25,790 nt of DNA from a virus (Duplodnaviria; Caudoviricetes), in the IMG/VR virus record IMGVR_UViG_3300038673_000375, positions 1-25,790 of that record; one strand, 5' to 3'. The notes beneath the pieces were generated by a model. That model made no database searches. It was not told the DNA's origin and saw only the letters and a program-made list of their open reading frames with translations. Both the position numbers and the translations under genes were made by a program. Of the stretch, positions 3,249 through 25,790 are shown one piece after another. Position 1 is the stretch's first letter, and every line of letters starts with the position of its first letter.

Positions 3249-5515
3249 TATGTGGATCCTCCTCTCATGAATGCCCCTAGGCTGGTGAGTCCCATGTTTG
3301 TGAGTACGTTGGTGTTGTACATGGTTTGGCTTTGGCCTTTGAGATATTTTTTAAGGTTTTTCTGTAATTTGCGCATGACGAAGGTGTAATATTTTCCGGG
3401 CCGGTTCACCCCTACTCTGGTGATGTATCCTTCATCGTTGATGTTGTGGGTGGCTGTTTTGGTGCTGTAATTCCCAGATAAGTAATATTTTGGGAGTTTT
3501 GACACCATGTATTGGCTTGGGTTGAGTAATGGTGTTCCTTTCATCACTATGGTGAATGATTTGAGTGGGTAACTGTTTTCTTCAACATATTTCTTACCAT
3601 AGAGGAGGGCGTCCGTTTTGGAGCTTATATCTGTTTGGTCCTCGTAGGCTTCCCAGAATCCAGGGCCAAACCTGTTTCCGCTGTCTTCATTTTCATAGAA
3701 TACTCGGCCTGTTTTTTCGGTGTCTCCTTTTTTGTAATGGTAATCGACTAGTATTCGGTTGTGGATGCTGTCACGTGGCTTATATGACCTGTCAGTCACG
3801 TCTAAAACGTTAATTCCCTGGATGGCCTGTACCGTGCTGACCTCATTCATTTCTGGAGCTATGCATAGAACGTCATGGCACCGTTCACGGCCGTAATCCA
3901 TGTAAGCAATGTATCCGGCGTTGTCTAACATCTCTTTGATGTTCTCATAGGCGTATCCTGTTTCCTGGTTGATTTTCATCTTAGTGTTCAGGTCAGAATC
4001 GTAGGCTGTTAATCCGATGAGGTGGATTGTGCTTTTCTCACGGCTGGTTATTTGGTCTGCGATGGCCACGTCCACGGCTTCAATCTTAGAAACGTAATAG
4101 TTGCTGCTTGCCACATAATCCTCGAAGGCTTCTTTCCAATCGAATTTCATTAACTGAGGGAGGCCGTTGAGGACTGGTGTCTCCTGCCCTATTATGTTCG
4201 TGGCACCGGCTTTGCCTGTGAATAGTATGTTGTATGTTTGTGCATCGGCAACAGTCTGATTTGCTTTGTGCATGGTGAGTTTTAAGTTGAACTGGACCCT
4301 ATTGTTTTTTTGGCAGGATTCCCCAGCGGCTAAGTATTTGAGGGATAATATGTCATCCACACTGGCATCCACGGGGTTGTAAGGGTCGTTGAATAAGACT
4401 GCATCACAATCCATGTCAGGAGTTACACCACAATGGTCAGGGGTTAACTTATCATATCCCAATCTAAGGCCGGTTGATGGGCTGTAAGTCTTGTTAAAAC
4501 CAGATACTGTTACCTTTTCATAGTCTTCATATATTCGGAAGTCCAGGTTTAAAGTGTAAGGGTAAAATATTCCATAATTCATGGGGCCGTATTCGCTGGT
4601 GTCGCTGGCGTGTCGTATTGATTCTAGGAAACTTCCAAATTTCCGCACTGGGAAGGTGTAAGTTTCATCACTTGTGGGGGCCACTCCCACCCAGTAATTG
4701 GTGTAAACTGGTTTTCGGTAGAGGTTCACCAGACTCCCAACACCGGCCAGGGTCATTTCTGTGCCTTCATCGTTTTCATCATAGCCCAGGACGTAACCCC
4801 CAAATTTGGGTTTGGTTTGACTCCAATCATCACTGGCCCCTACTATGATGTTTAGAAGGTCCATGAATTCAAAATGAGTTCGGCTGTAAATGTTCTCATT
4901 AGGGTCATTCCATATCTCCTTAATAGGGAGGGTTATTTCGGCACTGTTCAAGTCTCCCAGGTTGTTTTCGGTGAATTCAATATCCTTCCAATCCAACCTG
5001 TATGATGAATCCTTCTCATCACTACTAAAATATTCCAAACGGTACATTAGGAGGTGGTCAACCCAGGTTTTTCTACCATTCAGGGTGATGACGAATGTAT
5101 GTGTTCCTGCGGTTAAATCCACATATCCAAAGTCTAAGAACCTGTAATGCTCCCATTTGTAGTATGATGAGATTGTTTTAACTGTTTCTCCATCTATGGA
5201 TAGGGTGATGGTGGGGTTGGTTCCCCTGGCCCTGACCACCCTTATGAGCATCCAATATTTCCCGGCCTTGTCGATTGTTATATCTTTGGTGAGTGTTGCG
5301 CTGGTTAAGCTCCGGCCAGGGTGTAATCCAACAATATCCGCACCCCTATATCTCTGTTGGTAGATGCTGGTGCTGGATCGTTCCCAGTCAATGCAAGGTG
5401 AACGGTAGATGTTTGATGGATCTCTTCTCTGGATTTCCACCTTCACATAAGGATTATCAGTATAAGCCACATCTGGAACAGGGAATAGTGTGGGTTGAAA
5501 TTCTGCTTCGATCAT
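3248..5515 (-). CDS. Tail tip/baseplate hub-like (Tal-position) protein with N-terminal CBM6/35-like module
   Basis: Second gene after the tape measure; 'AGKY...LSIDG...DLTAGTHTF...VDHL' is CBM-like; the C-terminal half has a hub-like pattern. Confidence 0.6.
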   Translation of the reverse strand: MIEAEFQPTLFPVPDVAYTDNPYVKVEIQRRDPSNIYRSPCIDWERSSTSIYQQRYRGADIVGLHPGRSLTSATLTKDITIDKAGKYWMLIRVVRARGTNPTITLSIDGETVKTISSYYKWEHYRFLDFGYVDLTAGTHTFVITLNGRKTWVDHLLMYRLEYFSSDEKDSSYRLDWKDIEFTENNLGDLNSAEITLPIKEIWNDPNENIYSRTHFEFMDLLNIIVGASDDWSQTKPKFGGYVLGYDENDEGTEMTLAGVGSLVNLYRKPVYTNYWVGVAPTSDETYTFPVRKFGSFLESIRHASDTSEYGPMNYGIFYPYTLNLDFRIYEDYEKVTVSGFNKTYSPSTGLRLGYDKLTPDHCGVTPDMDCDAVLFNDPYNPVDASVDDILSLKYLAAGESCQKNNRVQFNLKLTMHKANQTVADAQTYNILFTGKAGATNIIGQETPVLNGLPQLMKFDWKEAFEDYVASSNYYVSKIEAVDVAIADQITSREKSTIHLIGLTAYDSDLNTKMKINQETGYAYENIKEMLDNAGYIAYMDYGRERCHDVLCIAPEMNEVSTVQAIQGINVLDVTDRSYKPRDSIHNRILVDYHYKKGDTEKTGRVFYENEDSGNRFGPGFWEAYEDQTDISSKTDALLYGKKYVEENSYPLKSFTIVMKGTPLLNPSQYMVSKLPKYYLSGNYSTKTATHNINDEGYITRVGVNRPGKYYTFVMRKLQKNLKKYLKGQSQTMYNTNVLTNMGLTSLGAFMRGGST

Positions 5516-5533: not shown

Positions 5534-7909
5534 TTAGATGGATTGTAGAGCCAAGGCTTGCTGTGTGGGTTTATGCCATTCTCTTGCTAGTTGTACGAAA
5601 TAGTCATCCGTGGTGGGTGGTTGCATTTGGTCATATACTCCTAGTCCTGTTAGGCTGCTGGCAGGAATAGAATCAGATTTAATCGTGCAAGGGTCTTTTT
5701 TAGTAACTACGAGTCCGTAACGGTTTGCTGCTGTGGGGGCTGCAACTATAATTGGATCAGTATGAGGATATACTGGGATTGGTCCTACCAATGAAGAGTC
5801 CATGTAGATTGTTGCTGCCTGTCGTGTAGGGGTTAACACTTTCATTGTGATATATCGTGTGTCTGGGTGTGTTACTTCTGATGTGAAATACGCTGGAAGG
5901 TATGAAGACGTGAGAGTGATTGTACCTGAATGATGGGATGTTAGTATTGATTTAGTAACATCTCTCTCGTAAATAAACAATTGAACCGTTCCGCTGCCTT
6001 TTAAAAACGTTTTGTTGAAGATTGGAAGACCAACTGTGGGAGTAACTGGTACTTCTGCATAGTAATTTGCATTTTCTTGTATTCCTTCATTCACAGCACT
6101 GTCGTTTGTTATTGCTTTCAATGCATAATTTCCAGTATAGCTATCAGGGTCTTGGGAAATTGTGGCCCCTGTTCCTTCCCATCCGGTTGTTCCTGATTCA
6201 ATGCCGTACTGATTAGTGGTCAATATATTATACGAATTGAAAAAGAGAGCATAGAACACGTCATCCATTGTAATGTCATAGTCCGCAGTTAACCAACTAG
6301 TTAGGGAATTATCATGGTAACAATTGTTTTTCAAAGTCATCCCAATATCATCGTAAGGGTGTTTAACATAAACATACGGTTTGCCTGCCCGAATAGTCCA
6401 GTAAGTCCGGTCCAACTGTAAAGTGAACTCCCAAGGTGTCACCATAAACGGACGGATCAACCTTATAGGGTTGGGTAGGGTGAAAGTGTTCACCAAAACA
6501 TAAGCAGATCCATTCCAACCGTACAAGGCCACTCCAGTACTAGTAGTTATAAGCTTAATCAACCCATTACTCACATAGAATTTAGTTGGATCTAAATCCA
6601 TTCCATTATGAGTCACCAAGCGATATACACTATCACTATAATTACCATTCCAACCCTTCACAGTTCCTTTATAAAAATTCGCAGGAGTAATCTGATAATT
6701 CAAGGGATCAAGAGGATTCTTGAAACACTGGATTAACCCATCCTCTGAAGCTCGTGTGAAATCTGGTGTAAGGTTACAAAAAGCATCTGGTGGGGCAACC
6801 ACAACATTAGGCTTACTAACCTCCTCCTCAGTATATGTTTTGAAATTTCCTGATTTCATTGTGGCTGCGGAAGTAGAAGTGGTGTTCATATTCCAGATGA
6901 AATCAGGACTACTCCACAAAAAACCAGTTTTACCAGTCCAGATCGGGTCACCGAAAGTAGTTCCACCAGTCTTGTCAATGTAAATACTCATCGACCCATC
7001 GGTATTATATTCTACTTTAAAGTTCGGGTTTTTCTCTGTGCTAATATTTAATGCCTGTTGAGATACAAGGTAAACAGCAGAACCGGCTTTGCACCGTACA
7101 ACACCAAAATAAAGAGTGCTGCCAGAGTAATAGATATAAAATCTTATATAATTGCTTGTACTACCATTCTGCAATAAATTCCAGGATTGAGGAGTTGATT
7201 CGACCATTATCAATTGTAAATTTGTTTTCCCACCAGTACCTGCAATATATTCCATGTCAAACTCAAAAGTAAATGGGGGGGTGTTCGTGAACTTATTATA
7301 AGTCTTTATACGTCCCCAACCACCATATCCAGGACTACCTGTCTTTGCACCAGTGAATACAAGTTTACCCCCACTGGTAGCGATACTACCACCAGAAAGA
7401 TAATAACTCTCATAAGTAGTCCAATTATCAGTGTAGGCTCCTGTGAACTCATCTTCAAGAATTATAACTTCATCCTTATCTTCATATCGTGAGTTAATGA
7501 CAGCAAGATCCTCACCACCCTTAGTATGATTAAGGGTAAGAGGTTCATTCACATTTCTACTGAGCATTTCTGCGGTTATTTTCACAAGACTATAGTTGGG
7601 ATGTTTGTATTCTTCTTCTGCATCTACTAATTTATAAAGGCCGTTGTGTGCAATTGCTTCATTGGTTGCTACGTAAATACTCCCCTCAACAGGCATAACT
7701 CCCCATCGGCTGTTTCGTGAAGATACTACTCTTAACCCACCATAATTATTTTTAACAACATCCCCACATAATCCGAGGATCTGTTTTGCCTGGGAGGGAC
7801 TGCACCAAATACTCATCTTCTCAGTTCCGTCCCTCTTGATTTCATCATCCTCAAAAACGTTAGCTTTAACAAATTCGAGAGGGCCGATCGTGGCTTCTGT
7901 TGTCATCAT
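5534..7909 (-). CDS. Distal-tail-position protein with inserted lectin-like and CBM4/9-like modules
   Basis: Directly follows the tape measure (ATGA overlap, GGAGG RBS); 'NILTTNQYGIESGTTGW...YTGNYALK...IYMD' is CBM4/9-like. Confidence 0.6.
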   Translation of the reverse strand: MMTTEATIGPLEFVKANVFEDDEIKRDGTEKMSIWCSPSQAKQILGLCGDVVKNNYGGLRVVSSRNSRWGVMPVEGSIYVATNEAIAHNGLYKLVDAEEEYKHPNYSLVKITAEMLSRNVNEPLTLNHTKGGEDLAVINSRYEDKDEVIILEDEFTGAYTDNWTTYESYYLSGGSIATSGGKLVFTGAKTGSPGYGGWGRIKTYNKFTNTPPFTFEFDMEYIAGTGGKTNLQLIMVESTPQSWNLLQNGSTSNYIRFYIYYSGSTLYFGVVRCKAGSAVYLVSQQALNISTEKNPNFKVEYNTDGSMSIYIDKTGGTTFGDPIWTGKTGFLWSSPDFIWNMNTTSTSAATMKSGNFKTYTEEEVSKPNVVVAPPDAFCNLTPDFTRASEDGLIQCFKNPLDPLNYQITPANFYKGTVKGWNGNYSDSVYRLVTHNGMDLDPTKFYVSNGLIKLITTSTGVALYGWNGSAYVLVNTFTLPNPIRLIRPFMVTPWEFTLQLDRTYWTIRAGKPYVYVKHPYDDIGMTLKNNCYHDNSLTSWLTADYDITMDDVFYALFFNSYNILTTNQYGIESGTTGWEGTGATISQDPDSYTGNYALKAITNDSAVNEGIQENANYYAEVPVTPTVGLPIFNKTFLKGSGTVQLFIYERDVTKSILTSHHSGTITLTSSYLPAYFTSEVTHPDTRYITMKVLTPTRQAATIYMDSSLVGPIPVYPHTDPIIVAAPTAANRYGLVVTKKDPCTIKSDSIPASSLTGLGVYDQMQPPTTDDYFVQLAREWHKPTQQALALQSI

Positions 7910-10900
7910 ATCCTCCTACCAAACTTTTTTCTTTTCCTTCTTTTTTCACGAGTTTCAAGAGAAGTTTTGACAGATTCATCAACCACATTCTCAAAATCAG
8001 GAAGGCCATAAACCTTATCATGGAAATGAACATGAACATGTACTTCTCCCTCACCAAGCCCCACGTCAGGCATGGGGCCTGCTGAAGGATAAGACCTCCA
8101 TCCTCCACGCTGCACAAATGCAGTAGGGTCCATATTCCCCAAACCCTGGATCCATGCACGTACATGACCAATCTTATTCCAAGTAGTTTGAACCATATAC
8201 CCATCCAGACCAAAAGCACGGGCAATAGTTAAAAGGAGAGAACTCATATCCCAACAGTTTCCCCCACGGTTGAGGAAAGTTCCCAAAACGCCATATTTGC
8301 TATTATAATAAAATTCGTAATGGAATGCACTGAAAATTTTATTCACGGTTGCTAAGAACATATCTGTCATGCTTTTATTAGGATCAGTTATGTCCACACC
8401 ATCTAATCCGAATTGACTCAGGAAATTCTGAGCCAAACTTCTAGCTCCCCCAATTATCGTATCTTTCCATCGACCTACATTGGTCCAGTTAGTGGTTGAA
8501 TCTCCTCCTGCAAATAAGCCTCCAAGATTATTAGGAGCGCCGGCAAACTGGCCTTTATAAATTGCAGCCATTACTTTATTACGAAGAGATTCACTTTTAA
8601 TGGGTAACGTTAAAGATGCTGAAGATTGAGGAGTCATACTTGTTTCATTAACAGTTATATCCCCACCAGCCACATTTCCCAAACCAAGAGCACTCCTTAA
8701 ACGGTTAACCAAGTTAATTATCGTATTCACCGGATTTTTTACAGCATTTTCAATACTGCTCCATGCACTCCTAGCATCTCCCACTAATCTCCAAAATGTA
8801 CTACTGATCAAACTAATCGCAGCAGTAACAAAATTTTTAATATAATTCAGGGGTCCGACAAAAGGAGTAGTAATCGCAGCCCATAACCCGCCAAGAGCAG
8901 CAGTCACCCTTCCAGGTAAAGATTTAAAGTGAGAAGTTACACTATTAACTCCTCTTGAAACAGTGCTTTTAGCACCATTAAAAGACCTAACAAAGAACCC
9001 CTTAACACGGTTAGGAACAATTTTAAGGGGATTTAAGAAAGTATTAATATTTATTTTGGGCCATTTAATACCAAAACGACTGAAATCAAAAAGGTTTTTA
9101 AGATCCTCCTGAAAACTAGGCTTACCAGCACCACCCGCACCACTAGCAGTTCCAAACATTCCTCCGAAAAAGTCCTTTATACCTTTTGTTGAATTTTGAG
9201 CATCACTCGTGAAGATATCCCCACTATTCTTAAAGGCATTGCCCAAATCAGTTTTCAATGCACTGAAGAATTGGTCGGGAAATCCCAATGTCCATCCTAC
9301 CCCTGTTTGTAATTGTTCAAGCCACCCTGTTGAATCAGTCCAATCTAACTCAAAGTCTGCTAACCATCCTGTTAAGTTTCGTTGTCCTTCAGAAAGATTA
9401 TAACTCCCTTCTGCCGCCTTATTATAACTTTCTGTTAAGTTATCTAAATTTCTTGTGGTAGTTATTGTTGCTTTATCTGCATCTGTTAATTGTGAAGCCC
9501 ATTCTGCATCAGCAGACAACTTCTTACCTTCTTCTGGAGTTAATTCTTCTGTGCTCACCCTATATGCTATAACTGCTTTCTTGGCTCTTTCAAGAGAGTC
9601 AGCATACTTCTCCATTATCTCTTTATGTGTTTCTGATGCATCCTTATAATTATTTTCAGCAGTAGTAGCAGTTTCAGTTGCATCTGCAAGATCGCTTTTT
9701 GCGTCCTTGAGGTTTTTTGTAGCAGTTGCATACTCTTCGGTTCCAGGAGTGGCATTGTTAACAGCAGTCTGCCATTTATCTACTTCTTTTTGAGCTTCCT
9801 GTTGTGCTGTTTTGGCCTCATCCATTACTTGTTTTCCCTTACTTAGAGCATCATTGGCATTTTCTATTCCTGTTTTAAACCATCCATATTTATTTCCTAA
9901 TATGATGATGGCTGCAACCAAAGCAGTTATTCCTATAACTGCGAGTCCCATTGGGCTTATTAAGAATGAAACCATTGCTGAACCTATGCTTTTAAGTTTA
10001 GATCCAACATTACTCATGGTGGATCCCCACTTGACATTTGAAGCAGTGATGTCTTCTGTTGCATCTTTTAAAACAACATTAACTCCGGCTGCATTAATGG
10101 CTTTAGCTGCGAGAGTTCCTAATTCTCTAGCCAATCCCTTAACAATATACCCTCCAGATTGAAGGCCCTGTAAAGCAAGACCACCTACTCCTCCTATTGC
10201 AGCCAATACAGATATCACACCCGCACCAATTATGGATATCTGAATTAGTCCTTTATTGGAATTAACAAAATCATTAATGACATCCATAGCTCCTGTGAAT
10301 AATGGGAGGAGGGTGGTTCCCACTGTGATGCCTATCTCGTTTAAAGTGGCATTAAATTTATTCAATTCTTTATCATACTCTGTGAGTCCGGCAGCGAATT
10401 CCATTATGCCCCTATCATTAAATAATTTCATTAAGGCATCCATTTTCTGCTCATCAGGAAGTGCTGCTATTTCTTTTAATGGCTGAGCCAATGGGGAAGC
10501 CCTTATCTCCCCAGTGTTACCGCTGAATACTGCTGCAATATCCTGCGGTCCTTCAATTTCTGCCAGACTAGCGAACTCTGGCTTCATCTTCTTGAAAAAG
10601 TTAATATAAGCTTGAACAACAGGAGTTAAACTAGCAATCTCAGAGGATGAGGTTGTTGTTGGCATGGTATTAGCCAGCAACTGTAATGTCCGGGCGGACG
10701 TTAATGGTTGAGCATAATATTTTTGCTGCATCATCTCTACTGTTTGAGAGTAGAGTTGTGCTGTTTGTTCGCCATAGGCTTTAGCCCAGAACTGTTCATA
10801 TCCCTGGAAAGTGTTCGCCACTCCCACAGTAAAATCATAAATCTGTTGGGATCCCATAATCCCCACAATGCCTAAGAGGCCCGTTCCAAAGTTGTCCAGG

Positions 10901-11610
10901 GCCTGGGTTGCATTCGAGATTTTGGTACCTATTGAGCCCACGGTGTTCCTTACCTTAGTGGCAGCATTATTTACGATACCCCACTTTCCAGTCATTGCTG
11001 TTTGGGCGGCTAGGAAGCTTCGGCCAGTTCCTGCGAAACTTGAACCTGCTTCTATGATTTGTCTGTTGAATGCTGCCTGTGCTACTGAGCTTCGTTCAAT
11101 ATGTTCGATTGGAAATGCGGATACTGCTGCTTTTCCTGCTACTCTTGCCCCATAGGATAATTGTGAGAATTCCCTAGTAGTTGCCATGGCCTGATCACTC
11201 ATTGTTAGGAGGGACCTTGTGCCTAAGTTGAATTGTTTAGCAAAAGCATCTCCGGGCATTATTGAGGAGGTTGCAGCGCTTATTTGTTTAGTTACTGTTG
11301 GGATTGTGTTCCCCAACGCCGAATAACTGGATCTTGTGTCTGCTAGTATCCTGTTAAATTGTCCTTGGGTAACTCCTAGGTTTTGCAGTCCATAATTTAG
11401 TTTGTTCCCGTAAACTGCTGCTTGGTTTAATTGTTTGGCGAATTCTTTAGCGTTCTGAGCAGCTATCCCTGGGATGGATGAAGACATCTTGGTGGATAAT
11501 CCTTTACCCATTGTCTTCTGAAAATCACTGGCAGCTTTTTTAAGTTCTTTTTCAAACTCTTTTATGTTGAGTTTCAGATACGCTTCGATTGAACCCCTGT
11601 TGTTGGCCAT
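7906..11610 (-). CDS. Tape measure protein with C-terminal transglutaminase-like cysteine protease domain
   Basis: 1234 aa, Ala-rich and helical; typical N-terminus (SIEAYLKLNIKEF); two hydrophobic segments and a coiled coil; C-terminal YEFYYNS...GNCWD...RAFG...GHV...MDPT. Confidence 0.92.
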   Translation of the reverse strand: MANNRGSIEAYLKLNIKEFEKELKKAASDFQKTMGKGLSTKMSSSIPGIAAQNAKEFAKQLNQAAVYGNKLNYGLQNLGVTQGQFNRILADTRSSYSALGNTIPTVTKQISAATSSIMPGDAFAKQFNLGTRSLLTMSDQAMATTREFSQLSYGARVAGKAAVSAFPIEHIERSSVAQAAFNRQIIEAGSSFAGTGRSFLAAQTAMTGKWGIVNNAATKVRNTVGSIGTKISNATQALDNFGTGLLGIVGIMGSQQIYDFTVGVANTFQGYEQFWAKAYGEQTAQLYSQTVEMMQQKYYAQPLTSARTLQLLANTMPTTTSSSEIASLTPVVQAYINFFKKMKPEFASLAEIEGPQDIAAVFSGNTGEIRASPLAQPLKEIAALPDEQKMDALMKLFNDRGIMEFAAGLTEYDKELNKFNATLNEIGITVGTTLLPLFTGAMDVINDFVNSNKGLIQISIIGAGVISVLAAIGGVGGLALQGLQSGGYIVKGLARELGTLAAKAINAAGVNVVLKDATEDITASNVKWGSTMSNVGSKLKSIGSAMVSFLISPMGLAVIGITALVAAIIILGNKYGWFKTGIENANDALSKGKQVMDEAKTAQQEAQKEVDKWQTAVNNATPGTEEYATATKNLKDAKSDLADATETATTAENNYKDASETHKEIMEKYADSLERAKKAVIAYRVSTEELTPEEGKKLSADAEWASQLTDADKATITTTRNLDNLTESYNKAAEGSYNLSEGQRNLTGWLADFELDWTDSTGWLEQLQTGVGWTLGFPDQFFSALKTDLGNAFKNSGDIFTSDAQNSTKGIKDFFGGMFGTASGAGGAGKPSFQEDLKNLFDFSRFGIKWPKININTFLNPLKIVPNRVKGFFVRSFNGAKSTVSRGVNSVTSHFKSLPGRVTAALGGLWAAITTPFVGPLNYIKNFVTAAISLISSTFWRLVGDARSAWSSIENAVKNPVNTIINLVNRLRSALGLGNVAGGDITVNETSMTPQSSASLTLPIKSESLRNKVMAAIYKGQFAGAPNNLGGLFAGGDSTTNWTNVGRWKDTIIGGARSLAQNFLSQFGLDGVDITDPNKSMTDMFLATVNKIFSAFHYEFYYNSKYGVLGTFLNRGGNCWDMSSLLLTIARAFGLDGYMVQTTWNKIGHVRAWIQGLGNMDPTAFVQRGGWRSYPSAGPMPDVGLGEGEVHVHVHFHDKVYGLPDFENVVDESVKTSLETREKRRKRKKFGRRI

Positions 11611-21628: not shown

Positions 21629-23083
21629 TCACCACATCTCCACACTGCCAATAAACGCTTTTTTCGGTTTTTCACCCATAAACAATACATTAAACGCCCC
21701 ACTCAGCGCATCCACCATATCATCATGCACCCCTTTAGTTGGGAAGCTAGTAATCTCATTTAAAAAATCATTATTCCAATCAGGATCTTCACGCATCTTC
21801 AGAAGACCCTTCTTAGCAAAAGTCACCATGGCCCGGGCACGTTCAAGTTTATCTTTCCTGGGAACTTTCCACCCATCGAAATCATAACCCGGGAGTTTCT
21901 TACCCCAAATATTCACCAAGTATTTAGGACTGGCCCCTCCTTCCATCTCTATTCGGAACAGGGTTTTGGGACGTTCATCATAATCTTCATGGATCTGTTT
22001 GAAAATTTCCTTCTCAGCCTTATCCGGTTCGAAACGGAAACGCTTGTAATGGTCAATGTAACCCTCTCCATCGTTATCCTTCAATAATAGGCATCCGGCA
22101 GTCCAATCAGCACCACCTTTTTTATTAACATTTTCCTCCTCGGTAGCTGCCAAGTCCCATAAACGGACACTGCCAACTATCGGTTCATCAATAGAAGTGT
22201 AACTATTATCAGTGAACCATTTCCTTTGAAAGATTTTACCCTCTGGAACAGCCTCCCAATCCCCATACTTCCACTGCCGGCCTAGTATTGGGTTTTCGGC
22301 TGCAATATCATCTAATATCTTACCATAATCCTCATGATTTAGGTGAGGGTTATCTGTATAGAGGGAGGGGATGAATAATCCATCCCCTTTAACAAAGCTG
22401 GTGTTAAAATAATCATGACTCAAACCACCAGGGTTCCCAGTGTACCATACATTCACAGGTAAAGGGTCATCCCCTGCTTTACGAACACTACCCCTCAAGT
22501 GAATGATTTTATGCTCACTGAACTGAACAGCTTCATCGAAAAGGAGTCGATGGTATTCTGCTCCCTGGTAATCTTCAACGTTCTCATCATATTGAACATG
22601 ACCAAACTGAACAGCAGCGCCAGAGGGAAACGTGAAAATTTTGTTATAGTTATCCCAGTGTGGTTTTATTCCTTCTTTTTCAAGATAATCCAGTGCCATC
22701 CATTTCCGGCACCGATTCATCACCGCACCGAGAGCGGCAAGCTTTTTATAAGTTAACCTTAAAACTCCTGCCTGCCATGAGGGCATAGATACAAATTGTA
22801 ATGCTGCCATTAGGAGGGTGCTTGTTTTACCGCCTCCCCTACCCCCACCAAACAAGGCATACTTAGAATGGAAGGCACTTACAAGGAGTTCAACTTGGGT
22901 GTAATATGGAACTTCTGGGATGTACGGATTCAGGATAATGCTTTGGTAAAATGTTTTAGCTTCAGCTCGTGGGAGGCTGACCATCATCTTCCGCAGATCG
23001 GAGTCTTCCTCCATCTGCTTCTTCCACTGTTCCACCTTCCACTGCTTCAACTCCATCGTGGATTTGAACTGGTTTATCGCCAC
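21629..23083 (-). CDS. terL: Terminase large subunit (psiM2-like C-terminal nuclease)
   Basis: Walker A GGGRGGGKT, Walker B LLFDEA, TGNPGG; nuclease WDLAAT and HDDMVDALS. Confidence 0.96.
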   Translation of the reverse strand: MAINQFKSTMELKQWKVEQWKKQMEEDSDLRKMMVSLPRAEAKTFYQSIILNPYIPEVPYYTQVELLVSAFHSKYALFGGGRGGGKTSTLLMAALQFVSMPSWQAGVLRLTYKKLAALGAVMNRCRKWMALDYLEKEGIKPHWDNYNKIFTFPSGAAVQFGHVQYDENVEDYQGAEYHRLLFDEAVQFSEHKIIHLRGSVRKAGDDPLPVNVWYTGNPGGLSHDYFNTSFVKGDGLFIPSLYTDNPHLNHEDYGKILDDIAAENPILGRQWKYGDWEAVPEGKIFQRKWFTDNSYTSIDEPIVGSVRLWDLAATEEENVNKKGGADWTAGCLLLKDNDGEGYIDHYKRFRFEPDKAEKEIFKQIHEDYDERPKTLFRIEMEGGASPKYLVNIWGKKLPGYDFDGWKVPRKDKLERARAMVTFAKKGLLKMREDPDWNNDFLNEITSFPTKGVHDDMVDALSGAFNVLFMGEKPKKAFIGSVEMW

Positions 23084-23570
23084 TTTCCTGTATCTCCATT
23101 AATGAATTCAATAAGTCTTTATCTCCAACAATAACCGCAACGGTCCCTGTATGGTTAACATCTTTGGTTTCCTTCTTAGGAGGACCACCAACCAATGCAT
23201 TCTTAGCTTCTATAACCCGTTTAAAGTCCAATGGGTTGCGGATTTTCATAATACTCCCATCATCATCCATTACGTATGCAAGGTATTCCGTTACAATTTG
23301 GTTGAGTATGTTTAACAAGTCACTTTCAAGAACAGCGAGAGATTCTGGGGATAAGTTTTCACGGGCAACTTCAATCATGTCATATTTGAGTTCTTCCTTC
23401 AAATCCCACATGTCATCTTTTTTCCACTTGTAAACAGTGGTTCTATCTCTACCGAACTTTTCAGCTATTCTAAGCATTCTTTGATTGATGGTTAACGTGC
23501 CTGTTAGTCCCATGGCAAAATAATGTTCGAATGCTAATTTTTTTTCTTTGTCTGTTACTGGCTTTGCCAT
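22962..23570 (-). CDS. terS: Terminase small subunit
   Basis: N-terminal HTH (IAEKFGRDRTTVYKWKK..W), helical middle, 'VNHTG.V' strand; GGTGA RBS; directly before terL. Confidence 0.82.
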   Translation of the reverse strand: MAKPVTDKEKKLAFEHYFAMGLTGTLTINQRMLRIAEKFGRDRTTVYKWKKDDMWDLKEELKYDMIEVARENLSPESLAVLESDLLNILNQIVTEYLAYVMDDDGSIMKIRNPLDFKRVIEAKNALVGGPPKKETKDVNHTGTVAVIVGDKDLLNSLMEIQESGDKPVQIHDGVEAVEGGTVEEADGGRLRSAEDDGQPPTS

Positions 23571-24252: not shown

Positions 24253-24711
24253 TTAAGCACTATCCTCTGAAGAACCAGTTACCATAACATTCTCCATAAG
24301 ATAACCATACCGTGGTTTCAAGAAGTTCCATATAATTAAAGCCATCCCCCCAATTACAGGGATTAATGCTTCAGCAGAATTCCCCACGAACGGAGTTAAA
24401 ACAGATGGGGTCATTGCAATAGTATATACGAAAGTCACAGCAACAATCATGAGGAACGTGGTTAATCCCCCCTGGGTAAACTGAATATCCTCCCCCGCCA
24501 ATATCTTATCACGGAGCCTAGGATAAGCATAATCATATAATGCAACTAGAATAGGCAATACTATAACACTTATTTTAAGCCATAAAGGCAATCCCACTAT
24601 TTGACCTGCAACATCCGGGTTTTCTATTATAAACCCTAAAACCAACACACCAGCAAACAACACAATAGATACCAAATAGGTGCTTATTAACCCTTTACTC
24701 AATTCCATCAT
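24253..24711 (-). CDS. Four-TM membrane protein with internal duplication (putative holin)
   Basis: AGGAGGAG RBS before ATG 24711; two similar 2-TM units ending LYDYAYPR and IWNFLKPR. Confidence 0.65.
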   Translation of the reverse strand: MMELSKGLISTYLVSIVLFAGVLVLGFIIENPDVAGQIVGLPLWLKISVIVLPILVALYDYAYPRLRDKILAGEDIQFTQGGLTTFLMIVAVTFVYTIAMTPSVLTPFVGNSAEALIPVIGGMALIIWNFLKPRYGYLMENVMVTGSSEDSA

Positions 24712-24729
24712 ATCTCCTCCTTTTAACAT

Positions 24730-25010
24730 TTTCACAAAATAAAATCCAAAGAGAAAAAAAACGGGAAAAACACCAGGGGGCAACATACAAAAAGAGTAGC
24801 CAGAATACCCCAAAAGCTACCCCCCAATGCCAAAAACAAAAAGAGATCCCACTCACCACAAATGAAACCTCCCTCAACATAACATACCGCCACACAAACA
24901 ATAAAAAAAAACAAAAAAAACACCACCAAAAAAGCCAAAAACAACCCCCACACACAACCAACCCACAACCAAACAAACAACCAAAACCCCAAAACCCCAA
25001 AAACACCCTA
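24730..25010. repeat. Low-complexity A/C-rich tract (T/G-rich on the minus strand)
   Basis: Very few G or T in 24886-25008; several A runs of 6-9 nt. Confidence 0.85.
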
Positions 25011-25080
25011 GAAAAATATTTTAGGAAAACGGCAAAAACGGCCGAAATGTATATGGGGATGGATTCCAAGCCCCCCTAAG

Positions 25081-25100
25081 AAATATTAAGGCTTTTTTTT
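25081..25100 (-). promoter_or_regulatory. Possible BRE-TATA promoter for the structural operon
   Basis: Minus strand reads AAAAAAAAGCCTTAATATTT. Confidence 0.35.
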
Positions 25101-25348
25101 TGAGAAAAGGAATATTACCCCGGGCCGTGGGACCTGCTCATCTGTCCGGATCTGATGACATGACATGTGATGACACCCCGCGGGGGCCCCGTGGCGGGGT
25201 GTCCTACGGTGATCATCATCACCGGATCGGTCCCAGTGGCACCCCTGGGGCTGCAGCTCCGGCGGTCTGGCGGGGTTCCTGCTGGCGGGCGGGGCCCGCC
25301 GTGGTGTCTGTGCTGTGGCTGTGGGTTGCTGTCTGGCCGTGGTTGGTT

Positions 25349-25376
25349 ACTTCGTTAAACTTGACTATAACGAACT
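25349..25376. other. dif/loxP-like tyrosine recombinase site (11-6-11)
   Basis: ACTTCGTTAAA-CTTGAC-TATAACGAACT; arms are 9/11 complementary. Confidence 0.6.
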
Positions 25377-25490
25377 AGAGTATATGATTTTTCCCATGGC
25401 CCCGGGCCCCTGCAGCTCCCCGGGGATCCGTGGCCCCTGAAGTCCCCGGAAGTCACTGCCCCCGGGGGTCATGGGGTGCTGCAGGTTAGG

Positions 25491-25530
25491 GAGATCAGAA
25501 CTATGATCGAAAGATCAGAACTGAGATCGA
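25491..25530. repeat. Two tandem 20-bp imperfect repeats (iteron-like)
   Basis: GAGATCAGAACTATGATCGA and AAGATCAGAACTGAGATCGA. Confidence 0.75.
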
Positions 25531-25621
25531 GATCGGATCTGCAGCTGCAGGCGGGCCCGGGTGGTTGGAGTGCGCCCGTCTCCGATCGATCACACTGGAG
25601 GCGGGGGTGCTGCAGGGGCTC

Positions 25622-25683
25622 GGTGGTGTGGTTTTTGGGTTGGTGTTGGGTGTTGGGTTGTTTGGGTGTGGGTGTTGTGTGGG
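25622..25683. repeat. Pure G/T tract
   Basis: 62 nt containing only G and T. Confidence 0.85.
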
Positions 25684-25696
25684 AAAGATTTATATA
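25683..25696 (+). promoter_or_regulatory. Archaeal BRE-TATA promoter, rightward
   Basis: GAAAGA-TTTATATA matches a purine-rich BRE plus TTTAWATA. Confidence 0.65.
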
Positions 25697-25755
25697 GGGT
25701 GTGCAACAATGTATTATTGGAGACAGTTTTTATTAGTCTCTGGGAAAGTGGTAAG

Positions 25756-25790
25756 ATGTTTGAAAAATCTGAGGATAAAAGGCGTGGCTG
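25756..25790 (+). CDS. Possible 5' end of a divergent gene (MFEKSEDKRRG...)
   Basis: ATG 60 nt after the TATA box, weak GTGGT RBS, open to the window end. Confidence 0.35.
   Translation, partial: MFEKSEDKRRG

Follow-up and report, generated by a model that had tools for sequence, protein, structure and literature searches.

A predicted XerA recombination site on a tailed virus belongs to a family dispersed in multiple copies in Methanobacteriales

It is known that archaea possess dif sites served by the recombinase XerA, which have been described in Thermococcales, Thermoplasma and Sulfolobus. The site analyzed here resembles them in being an intergenic, imperfect palindrome of 28 bp with an 11-6-11 arrangement and in belonging to hosts with a single XerA (NF040815) (PMC2958812, PMC8371274, PMC11840125). 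According to these accounts archaeal dif is found in a single copy near the terminus, whereas members of the family presented here occur in 0-22 dispersed copies with distinct spacers and are found on plasmids and viruses as well. A review also describes archaeal dif as single-copy and states that no archaeal system that steers the reaction toward resolution is known (PMC8371274). In T. acidophilum two XerA binding sites were reported, one of which is active (PMC11840125). The general requirement that strand exchange by tyrosine recombinases takes place between matching centres is described in two of these sources (PMC8371274, PMC11705084). The arms of the family differ from those of Thermococcales dif and from an HMM-predicted candidate in M. 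stadtmanae (PMC2958812, Figure S6). In the open-access texts retrieved we found no account of the family, and neither XerA sites in multiple copies in methanogens nor promoter switches of the Xer type in archaea are described there; in the text retrieved from the paper on the 2.9-kb circle of M. smithii no repeats are reported and there is no mention of Xer.

The window, i.e. the whole stretch of 25,790 bp analyzed here, is a linear virus record approximately 37% complete, in which a sequence search found one copy of such a site, an 11-6-11 inverted repeat of 28 bp at 25349-25376, with the end of the record 414 bp beyond it. The left arm ACTTCGTTAAA (25349-25359, plus strand) and the right arm TATAACGAACT (25366-25376, plus strand), both predicted XerA half-sites, are complementary at 9 of 11 positions, bordered by T at 25348 and A at 25377, and they enclose the asymmetric 6-bp spacer CTTGAC (25360-25365, plus strand), the predicted region of strand exchange. 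The first-pass annotation, made from the letters of the window, had described this site as an AT-rich island in GC-rich DNA, about 1.8 kb from the small terminase gene and in a window with no recombinase gene, and this description was confirmed: GC content is 31% at 25348-25395 and 66% and 63% in the flanks, the distance to the start of the terS-like ORF is 1,779 bp, and a PF00589 search of the record found no tyrosine recombinase. The bare palindrome is at chance level, the window holding two 11-6-11 repeats with at least 9/11 pairing (shuffle mean 4.4) and 17% of shuffles of the 1.1-kb region 24701-25790 yielding one 11-6-11 repeat. What places the site above chance is that its arm sequence and 6-bp spacing are conserved in hosts, plasmids and other viruses. 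It differs from the family consensus, ACTTCGTTWWA-N6-TWWAACGAAGT, at one position, while the next best match within the window has six mismatches, and ACTTCGTTAAA is the commonest left arm among 109 host sites, a sample whose search pattern itself fixes most of the arm positions. A sigma-70-like match that overlaps the site was set aside as being of doubtful meaning in an archaeal virus, and a scan of IMG/VR with a 14-base palindromic pattern, which gave approximately 370 mostly unrelated matches, was not used.

The window carries the gene set of a tailed virus on the minus strand, with terL, portal, capsid, tail tube and tape measure. The terminase large subunit (21629-23083, minus strand) has its best matches, at 37%, in the Methanobacteriales viruses psiM2 and psiM100, and adjoining it is a putative terminase small subunit (22962-23570, minus strand) with a weak Terminase_5 match (PF06056, E 3.4e-4). 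Single-protein searches with the capsid and the portal found no relatives, and blastn of the site region against phages and plasmids gave weak or low-complexity matches only. Around the site extends a GC-rich, apparently non-coding stretch (25100-25680) in which CTGCAG, GATC and CCCGG words are abundant (six CTGCAG and twelve GATC), and C/A-rich and G/T-rich tracts at 24700-25010 and 25620-25690 are loosely mirrored around this block. A TATA-like sequence, TTTATATA, near 25689 may drive genes past the end of the contig, and the region around the site is possibly an origin or packaging region. The tape-measure protein (7906-11610) ends in a C-terminal transglutaminase-like domain (PF01841) which, judging from this domain match, is plausibly an entry enzyme that cuts pseudomurein.

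With terL alone we found one viral relative (52% identity), whose intergenic site agrees with that of the window at 17 of 22 arm positions and has a different spacer, and from these two sites the search pattern was derived. In IMG/VR it was present at 14 loci on 13 contigs, and 11 of these loci have at least four protein matches to methanogen viruses. In GTDB, where the scan covered 42 of 64 parts, 110 of the 120 exact matches listed fall in records of Methanobacteriales taxa, Methanobacteriota or Euryarchaeota, and the rest of the matches listed are six Bacillus with one fixed spacer and four other bacterial records. The Bacillus genomes (L150, L154, L156, L206, L219 and L250) share an identical 28-bp match to the strict pattern and were left out of the host set. 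A match was found in 108 of 151 Methanobacteriales genomes, with 0-22 copies per genome. Allowing up to three mismatches, five near-complete genomes have 9, 9, 9, 9 and 11 forward matches dispersed round the chromosome (one match in G002 being an assembly overlap), against 0-2 in backward controls. The spacing is almost always 6 bp, with 47 forward matches in the five genomes at 6 bp, two at 5 bp and one at 7 bp. All 52 host sites examined, from six genomes, lie outside ORFs of at least 100 aa; 30 are situated in tandem, 11 in divergent and 11 in convergent gaps, compared with 47, 23 and 14, respectively, of the 84 other gaps at the same loci, and the neighboring genes have no evident common function. 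Two candidates were discarded along the way: identical sites 30 kb apart in G002, considered as attL/attR, are an assembly end overlap (6541/6541 bases identical), the deposited chromosome repeating approximately 30 kb at both ends (L259, L260) as an untrimmed overlap, and three sites seen in both L343 and G045 are the same DNA and do not count as independent.

The arms and the 6-bp spacing are thus kept in Methanobacteriales, plasmids and viruses, as the first-pass annotation had anticipated for hosts and related viruses. Its expectation of a single-copy intergenic host match was borne out for the intergenic part (52/52) and failed for the copy number, each of the five genomes having 9-11 dispersed copies with different spacers. 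The geometry is therefore that of canonical archaeal dif (28 bp, imperfect 11-bp arms, 6-bp spacer, intergenic position), while the number of copies per host and the diversity of their spacers show that the family is not one single dif. One of the host copies could still be the main terminus site.

The spacers behave differently in dispersed copies and in close pairs. Among dispersed copies none of 215 within-genome pairs had spacers within one mismatch of each other, where 4.2 (label shuffle, P 0.007) or 3.5 (column null, P 0.03) such pairs would be expected; an exception beyond this set of pairs is G045, which has GCACGA in both a provirus and a chromosomal island. In the genome G092, on the other hand, all 12 close pairs are inverted and have identical spacers (6/6). 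These 12 candidate invertible loci (L315-L320, L325, L327, L328 and L479-L481) use ten spacers, two of which recur at duplicated loci. Nine of the pairs were scored, and within a pair the arms are identical at 16-20 of 22 positions but the flanks of 15 bp at 1-6 only. Most pairs are situated approximately 0.5 kb upstream of large secreted beta-helix/Ig-like, adhesin-like proteins. Of six homologous segments of 170 bp, three point one way with respect to the gene downstream and three the other way, and the five segments of a second subfamily all have a single orientation. An independent inverted pair with 6/6 spacer identity, 383 bp apart, was found in G214 (C15:9222-9632, L482). Host inverted pairs are 196-383 bp apart and enclose segments of approximately 170 bp, 224 bp in L319 and approximately 355 bp in G214. 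Going by this arrangement, the segments in G092 and G214 are possibly invertible promoters that would provide phase variation of adhesin-like genes in a methanogen. Sites at contig ends of G092 share spacers in two more cases (C16/C36 and C26/C6), as would be expected of a flipping segment that breaks an assembly. At C4:42619-46960 of G092 (L315, L400) a segment lies directly upstream of a gene for a magnesium-translocating P-type ATPase, followed by xerA on the same strand, and the recombinase itself may therefore be under the control of this switch. The inner arms of L327 and L479 looked as if they had been swapped, but this proved to be merely a paralogous locus in reverse complement.

Such pairs raise the question whether the site in the window is one end of an invertible segment whose partner lies past the end of the contig, which stops 414 bp beyond the site. 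We regard this as quite improbable, even with the inverted pairs of G092 and G214 as examples: no partner with the same spacer is present in the 25.8 kb, a partner at the distance seen in host pairs would fall inside the contig, and none of five multi-site viral records (G336, G339, G340, G343 and G344) has a pair with matched spacers, nor do the contigs have a strand-switch joint. A contig from what is probably the source run extends across the site with no joint and no variant, with the reservation that contigs drop rare forms.

The most probable enzyme acting on the family is the host XerA, one of the two candidates proposed in the first-pass annotation. A single strong PF00589 match was obtained in each of five hosts, and the PF00589 proteins tested from two hosts are XerA (NF040815, 353 bits with a cut-off of 220). 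When an XerA orthologue was called at E below 1e-70, 118 of 151 genomes had one and 33 did not; the site is present in 106 of the 118 genomes with XerA and in two of the 33 without it, and at least two sites are present in 95 and none of them, respectively, kinship being uncorrected in both comparisons. The 33 Methanobacteriales genomes without an XerA orthologue may represent one or a few clades, so another protein lost together with it could be the reader, and it can be observed that these genomes lack both the orthologue and the sites. Twelve genomes with XerA have no site, and in five of them a looser pattern gave background counts. An apparent clustering of sites near xerA (within 15 kb in three of nine single-contig genomes, expected 0.9, P 0.054) is not claimed, and at 34 xerA loci no site was found within 1.5 kb of the gene. 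G092 has a second tyrosine recombinase of 197 aa, which could be its invertase instead of XerA; a search of 61 other genomes at E 1e-15, run with no positive control, did not find this protein. From the conserved arms and spacing and their company with XerA we consider it likely that the site in the window is an XerA recombination site.

The same sites could instead be bound by a protein and never recombine, either as operators of a transcription factor, as organisers of the parS/matS kind or as XerA sites resembling the XDS. Such a role would suit sites that are intergenic, dispersed in many copies and free at the centre, and there are precedents in the XDS bound by XerD and in T. acidophilum dif1, which is reported to be bound by XerA but not to recombine (PMC11840125). 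However, binding alone leaves unexplained both the perfect matching of spacers in inverted pairs and their avoidance among dispersed copies, and convergent gaps are not depleted. We therefore find this possibility very doubtful. The repressor operator named as the alternative in the first-pass annotation is likewise disfavoured, with 11 of 52 sites in convergent gaps, as in the background, and no coherent regulon. No canonical Smc was found in the five hosts tested (5/5), which weakens a role in Smc unloading of the XDS type.

Outside chromosomes the family is present on plasmids and viruses of methanogens. One clear intergenic site, with two mismatches and the next best match at eight, was found both in pME2001 (3905-3932, L358) and in its relative pMTB1 (4026, L446), while pFV1 (13,000 of 13,514 bp covered), the DP plasmid and pFZ1 had only degenerate candidates with five, five and six mismatches, respectively. 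The cultured virus Drs3 has one intergenic site (36231-36258, L454) and no integrase match. Eight of nine annotated viruses, psiM2, psiM100, PhiF1, PhiF3, MSTV1, vir080, vir249 and vir323, have no clear site, and PhiF3 carries a perfect left arm. Of the near-complete IMG/VR records, G338 (98% complete) has one site and G336 has four sites with four spacers; in neither was a recombinase found by two queries, and it is in this sense that absence of a recombinase is understood here, because PF00589 alone missed an integrase fragment in G343 that the protein query found. G331, also near-complete, combines a single site with an integrase located 24 kb from it, and integrase genes or fragments are carried by G331, G340 and G343. 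The closest relative of the window virus, apparently one species sampled repeatedly, has three sites with three spacers, and several relatives have 2-4 sites. Profile searches gave six more viral fragments that the pattern had missed, one of which (L462) has two sites, while the other five (1.7-12 kb) have none. One end of L456 lies within the spacer of the site that this virus carries (at its position 1, compared with 657-684 of L351) and L457 begins beyond it, which could be a recombination fork or an effect of the palindrome on the assembler.

The position of the site is not constant among relatives: some copies are near the terminase genes, either upstream of terS or in the terS-terL or terL-portal intervals, and others lie amid head and tail genes, past the lysin or in the early genes. 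Circularisation through terminal redundancy as in P1, one of the roles suggested in the first-pass annotation, is unsupported because of this variation relative to terS. It also speaks against the site being a target of a Cre-like recombinase which the virus itself would encode in the missing part of its genome and use for circularisation after injection. Approximately 63% of the viral genome is missing, and since the record is only about 37% complete a viral recombinase or a partner site may lie outside it; the outer arm bases do match those of P1 lox in register (8/11 and 7/11). But the same arms are present in hosts and on a 4.4-kb plasmid with no annotated recombinase, and the near-complete G336 and G338 as well as Drs3 have sites and no detected recombinase, which makes this the least probable of all the explanations considered, and an extremely improbable one.

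Integration at the host dif, also suggested earlier, is unlikely because the exact spacer CTTGAC was found at sites in none of 328 Methanobacteriales genomes and because two related proviruses, G329 and G344, have their sites in the interior and not at their borders. More generally, the site could be an attP for integration driven by XerA, in the manner of an archaeal IMEX. No integrase was found in the record, spacers with one mismatch to CTTGAC are present in 10 of 328 genomes (seven of them CTCGAC), the spacer CCACGG of a close relative is found also at chromosomal sites in G092, G212 and G214, and the true host may be unsampled. Against it stand, besides the lack of the exact spacer, the absence of a direct pair with the same spacer in six near-complete chromosomes (one assembly overlap removed) and the integrases of related records, G344 having a PF00589 integrase just outside the predicted provirus edge and G331, G340 and G343 their integrase genes or fragments. 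An attP role is in our estimate very improbable. The seven CTCGAC sites were considered as orthologues and rejected, their 1.5-kb flanks being unrelated, with only scattered genes in common within 10 kb (in five genomes).

The main rival explanation is that the XerA site serves mainly for gene traffic resembling that of pdif modules, in which viruses, plasmids and chromosomal islands would form cointegrates and so gain, swap or lose accessory cassettes, and that the copy in the window is an empty or one-sided border of such a module. There is a precedent for this in Acinetobacter (PMC11705084). In G344 (L343 14969-18492, L473) two sites are situated among foreign genes, namely membrane-protein and ParE-type genes inserted before the head-tail adaptor, and in the relative L462/L339 (L462 11267-13752) an insertion at this position, absent from the window, is closed by a site. 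The four sites with four spacers in G336 fit the same explanation. Identical spacers recur among host sites in 92 pairs, compared with a null of 16 (maximum 33), with unrelated flanks in 77 of the 87 same-spacer pairs for which both flanks were scored. A 2.3-kb insertion in L199 relative to L364 begins at a site, but has no second copy that closes it, and the G045 spacer GCACGA is shared between provirus and island. That chromosomal island (L475, G045:C33 380-6277) lies beside EF-Tu/S10 genes and has two sites and a glycosyltransferase gene; a 137-aa ORF in it resembles, by eye and unaligned, a viral head-tail gene of L136. Nevertheless no identifiable cassette adjoins the site in the window, and viral spacers match host spacers at the level of chance (4/23, null 3.0, P 0.36). 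As the main function of the site such traffic is rather unlikely; it is compatible with self-resolution and does not exclude it.

We consider it moderately probable, on the basis of sequence comparison, that the window virus uses its site in a cer-like manner for self-resolution of dimers and multimers by the host XerA. XerA would bind each arm and exchange strands within the spacer. Only sites with equal spacers would recombine, and because exchange is restricted in this way a site with a private spacer would act on its own sister copy alone. For the host this would mean many independent resolution points with no deletions or inversions between them, and for the virus resolution of dimers and multimers of its own circular genome with no accidental fusion to the chromosome. 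Dimer resolution, raised already in the first-pass annotation, is plausible in view of single sites on a plasmid and a virus in which no recombinase was detected. A point against self-resolution is that relatives with 2-4 sites exceed the need of dimer resolution.

For the order as a whole we tentatively suggest that in Methanobacteriales a distributed system of XerA sites addressed by their spacers replaces the single dif and is reused for switches, plasmids, viruses and cassettes. Some ten sites per chromosome, each addressed by a 6-bp spacer of its own, would resolve dimers at any place on it and would need neither FtsK nor Smc. To our knowledge FtsK is absent from archaea. Whether spacers are matching or private would then set the use of a site, in promoter switches of adhesins, in keeping plasmids and viruses monomeric or in the exchange of cassettes by viruses and chromosomes. 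A lineage with many spacer-insulated sites would be a concrete and testable alternative to the single dif. The single site of the window is modest in itself and its value lies in the family that it exposed. Stability elements are predicted from this family both for the widely used cryptic plasmid pME2001 and for the cultured virus Drs3, and the sites of the two are ready experimental handles; the whole of pME2001 is described as the replicon of a Methanothermobacter shuttle vector (PMC8609365). The family also points to phase-variable promoters of adhesins in methanogens and, if orthogonal spacers work as predicted, could provide a lox-like toolkit for methanogen genetics.

Compared with other known systems, the family has features of several of them. 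The bacterial dif/xrs inner motif ATAA-N6-TTAT (PMC11705084) is not present, the family having TAAA or TATA-N6-TATA in its place. With P1 loxP (NC_005856) the site shares outer arm bases equally spaced from the centre (8/11 left, 7/11 right) and a predicted role in dimer resolution. LoxP differs in its 13-bp arms and the adjacent cre gene, a combination that is absent from the window; the inner bases differ as well, and the family site has no constant position close to the start of packaging. IMEX such as CTXphi and TLC (PMC5357621) are alike in being mobile elements with an Xer-type site and no detected integrase, but for the virus a host site with the same spacer was not found, and the sites do not form the borders of related proviruses. 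The invertible promoters of the Bacteroides fragilis type resemble the short segments between inverted sites upstream of surface-protein genes in G092 and G214; the latter, which are absent from the window, are archaeal, are likely driven by the housekeeping XerA or the 197-aa recombinase, and differ also in that it is mainly the spacer that insulates one switch from another. The pdif/xrs sites of Acinetobacter also occur as several Xer sites per replicon with divergent centres and at borders of accessory genes (PMC11705084), and their recombination is reported to need closely matching centres (PMC11705084). Such bracketing of accessory genes is seen in the relatives G344 and G336, the window having one site only, and differently from pdif the multi-site arrangement spans the whole host chromosome and the arms are near-symmetric, as for one protein. 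ColE1 cer/psi (PMC5357621, PMC11705084) corresponds to the single sites of pME2001, pMTB1, Drs3 and G338, episomes in which no recombinase was detected and for which multimer resolution by the host Xer is predicted; the window, with its one site, is a record about 37% complete. While cer has an 8-bp centre and accessory sequences for ArgR and PepA, what we describe here is probably an archaeal single-recombinase system carried by a tailed virus.
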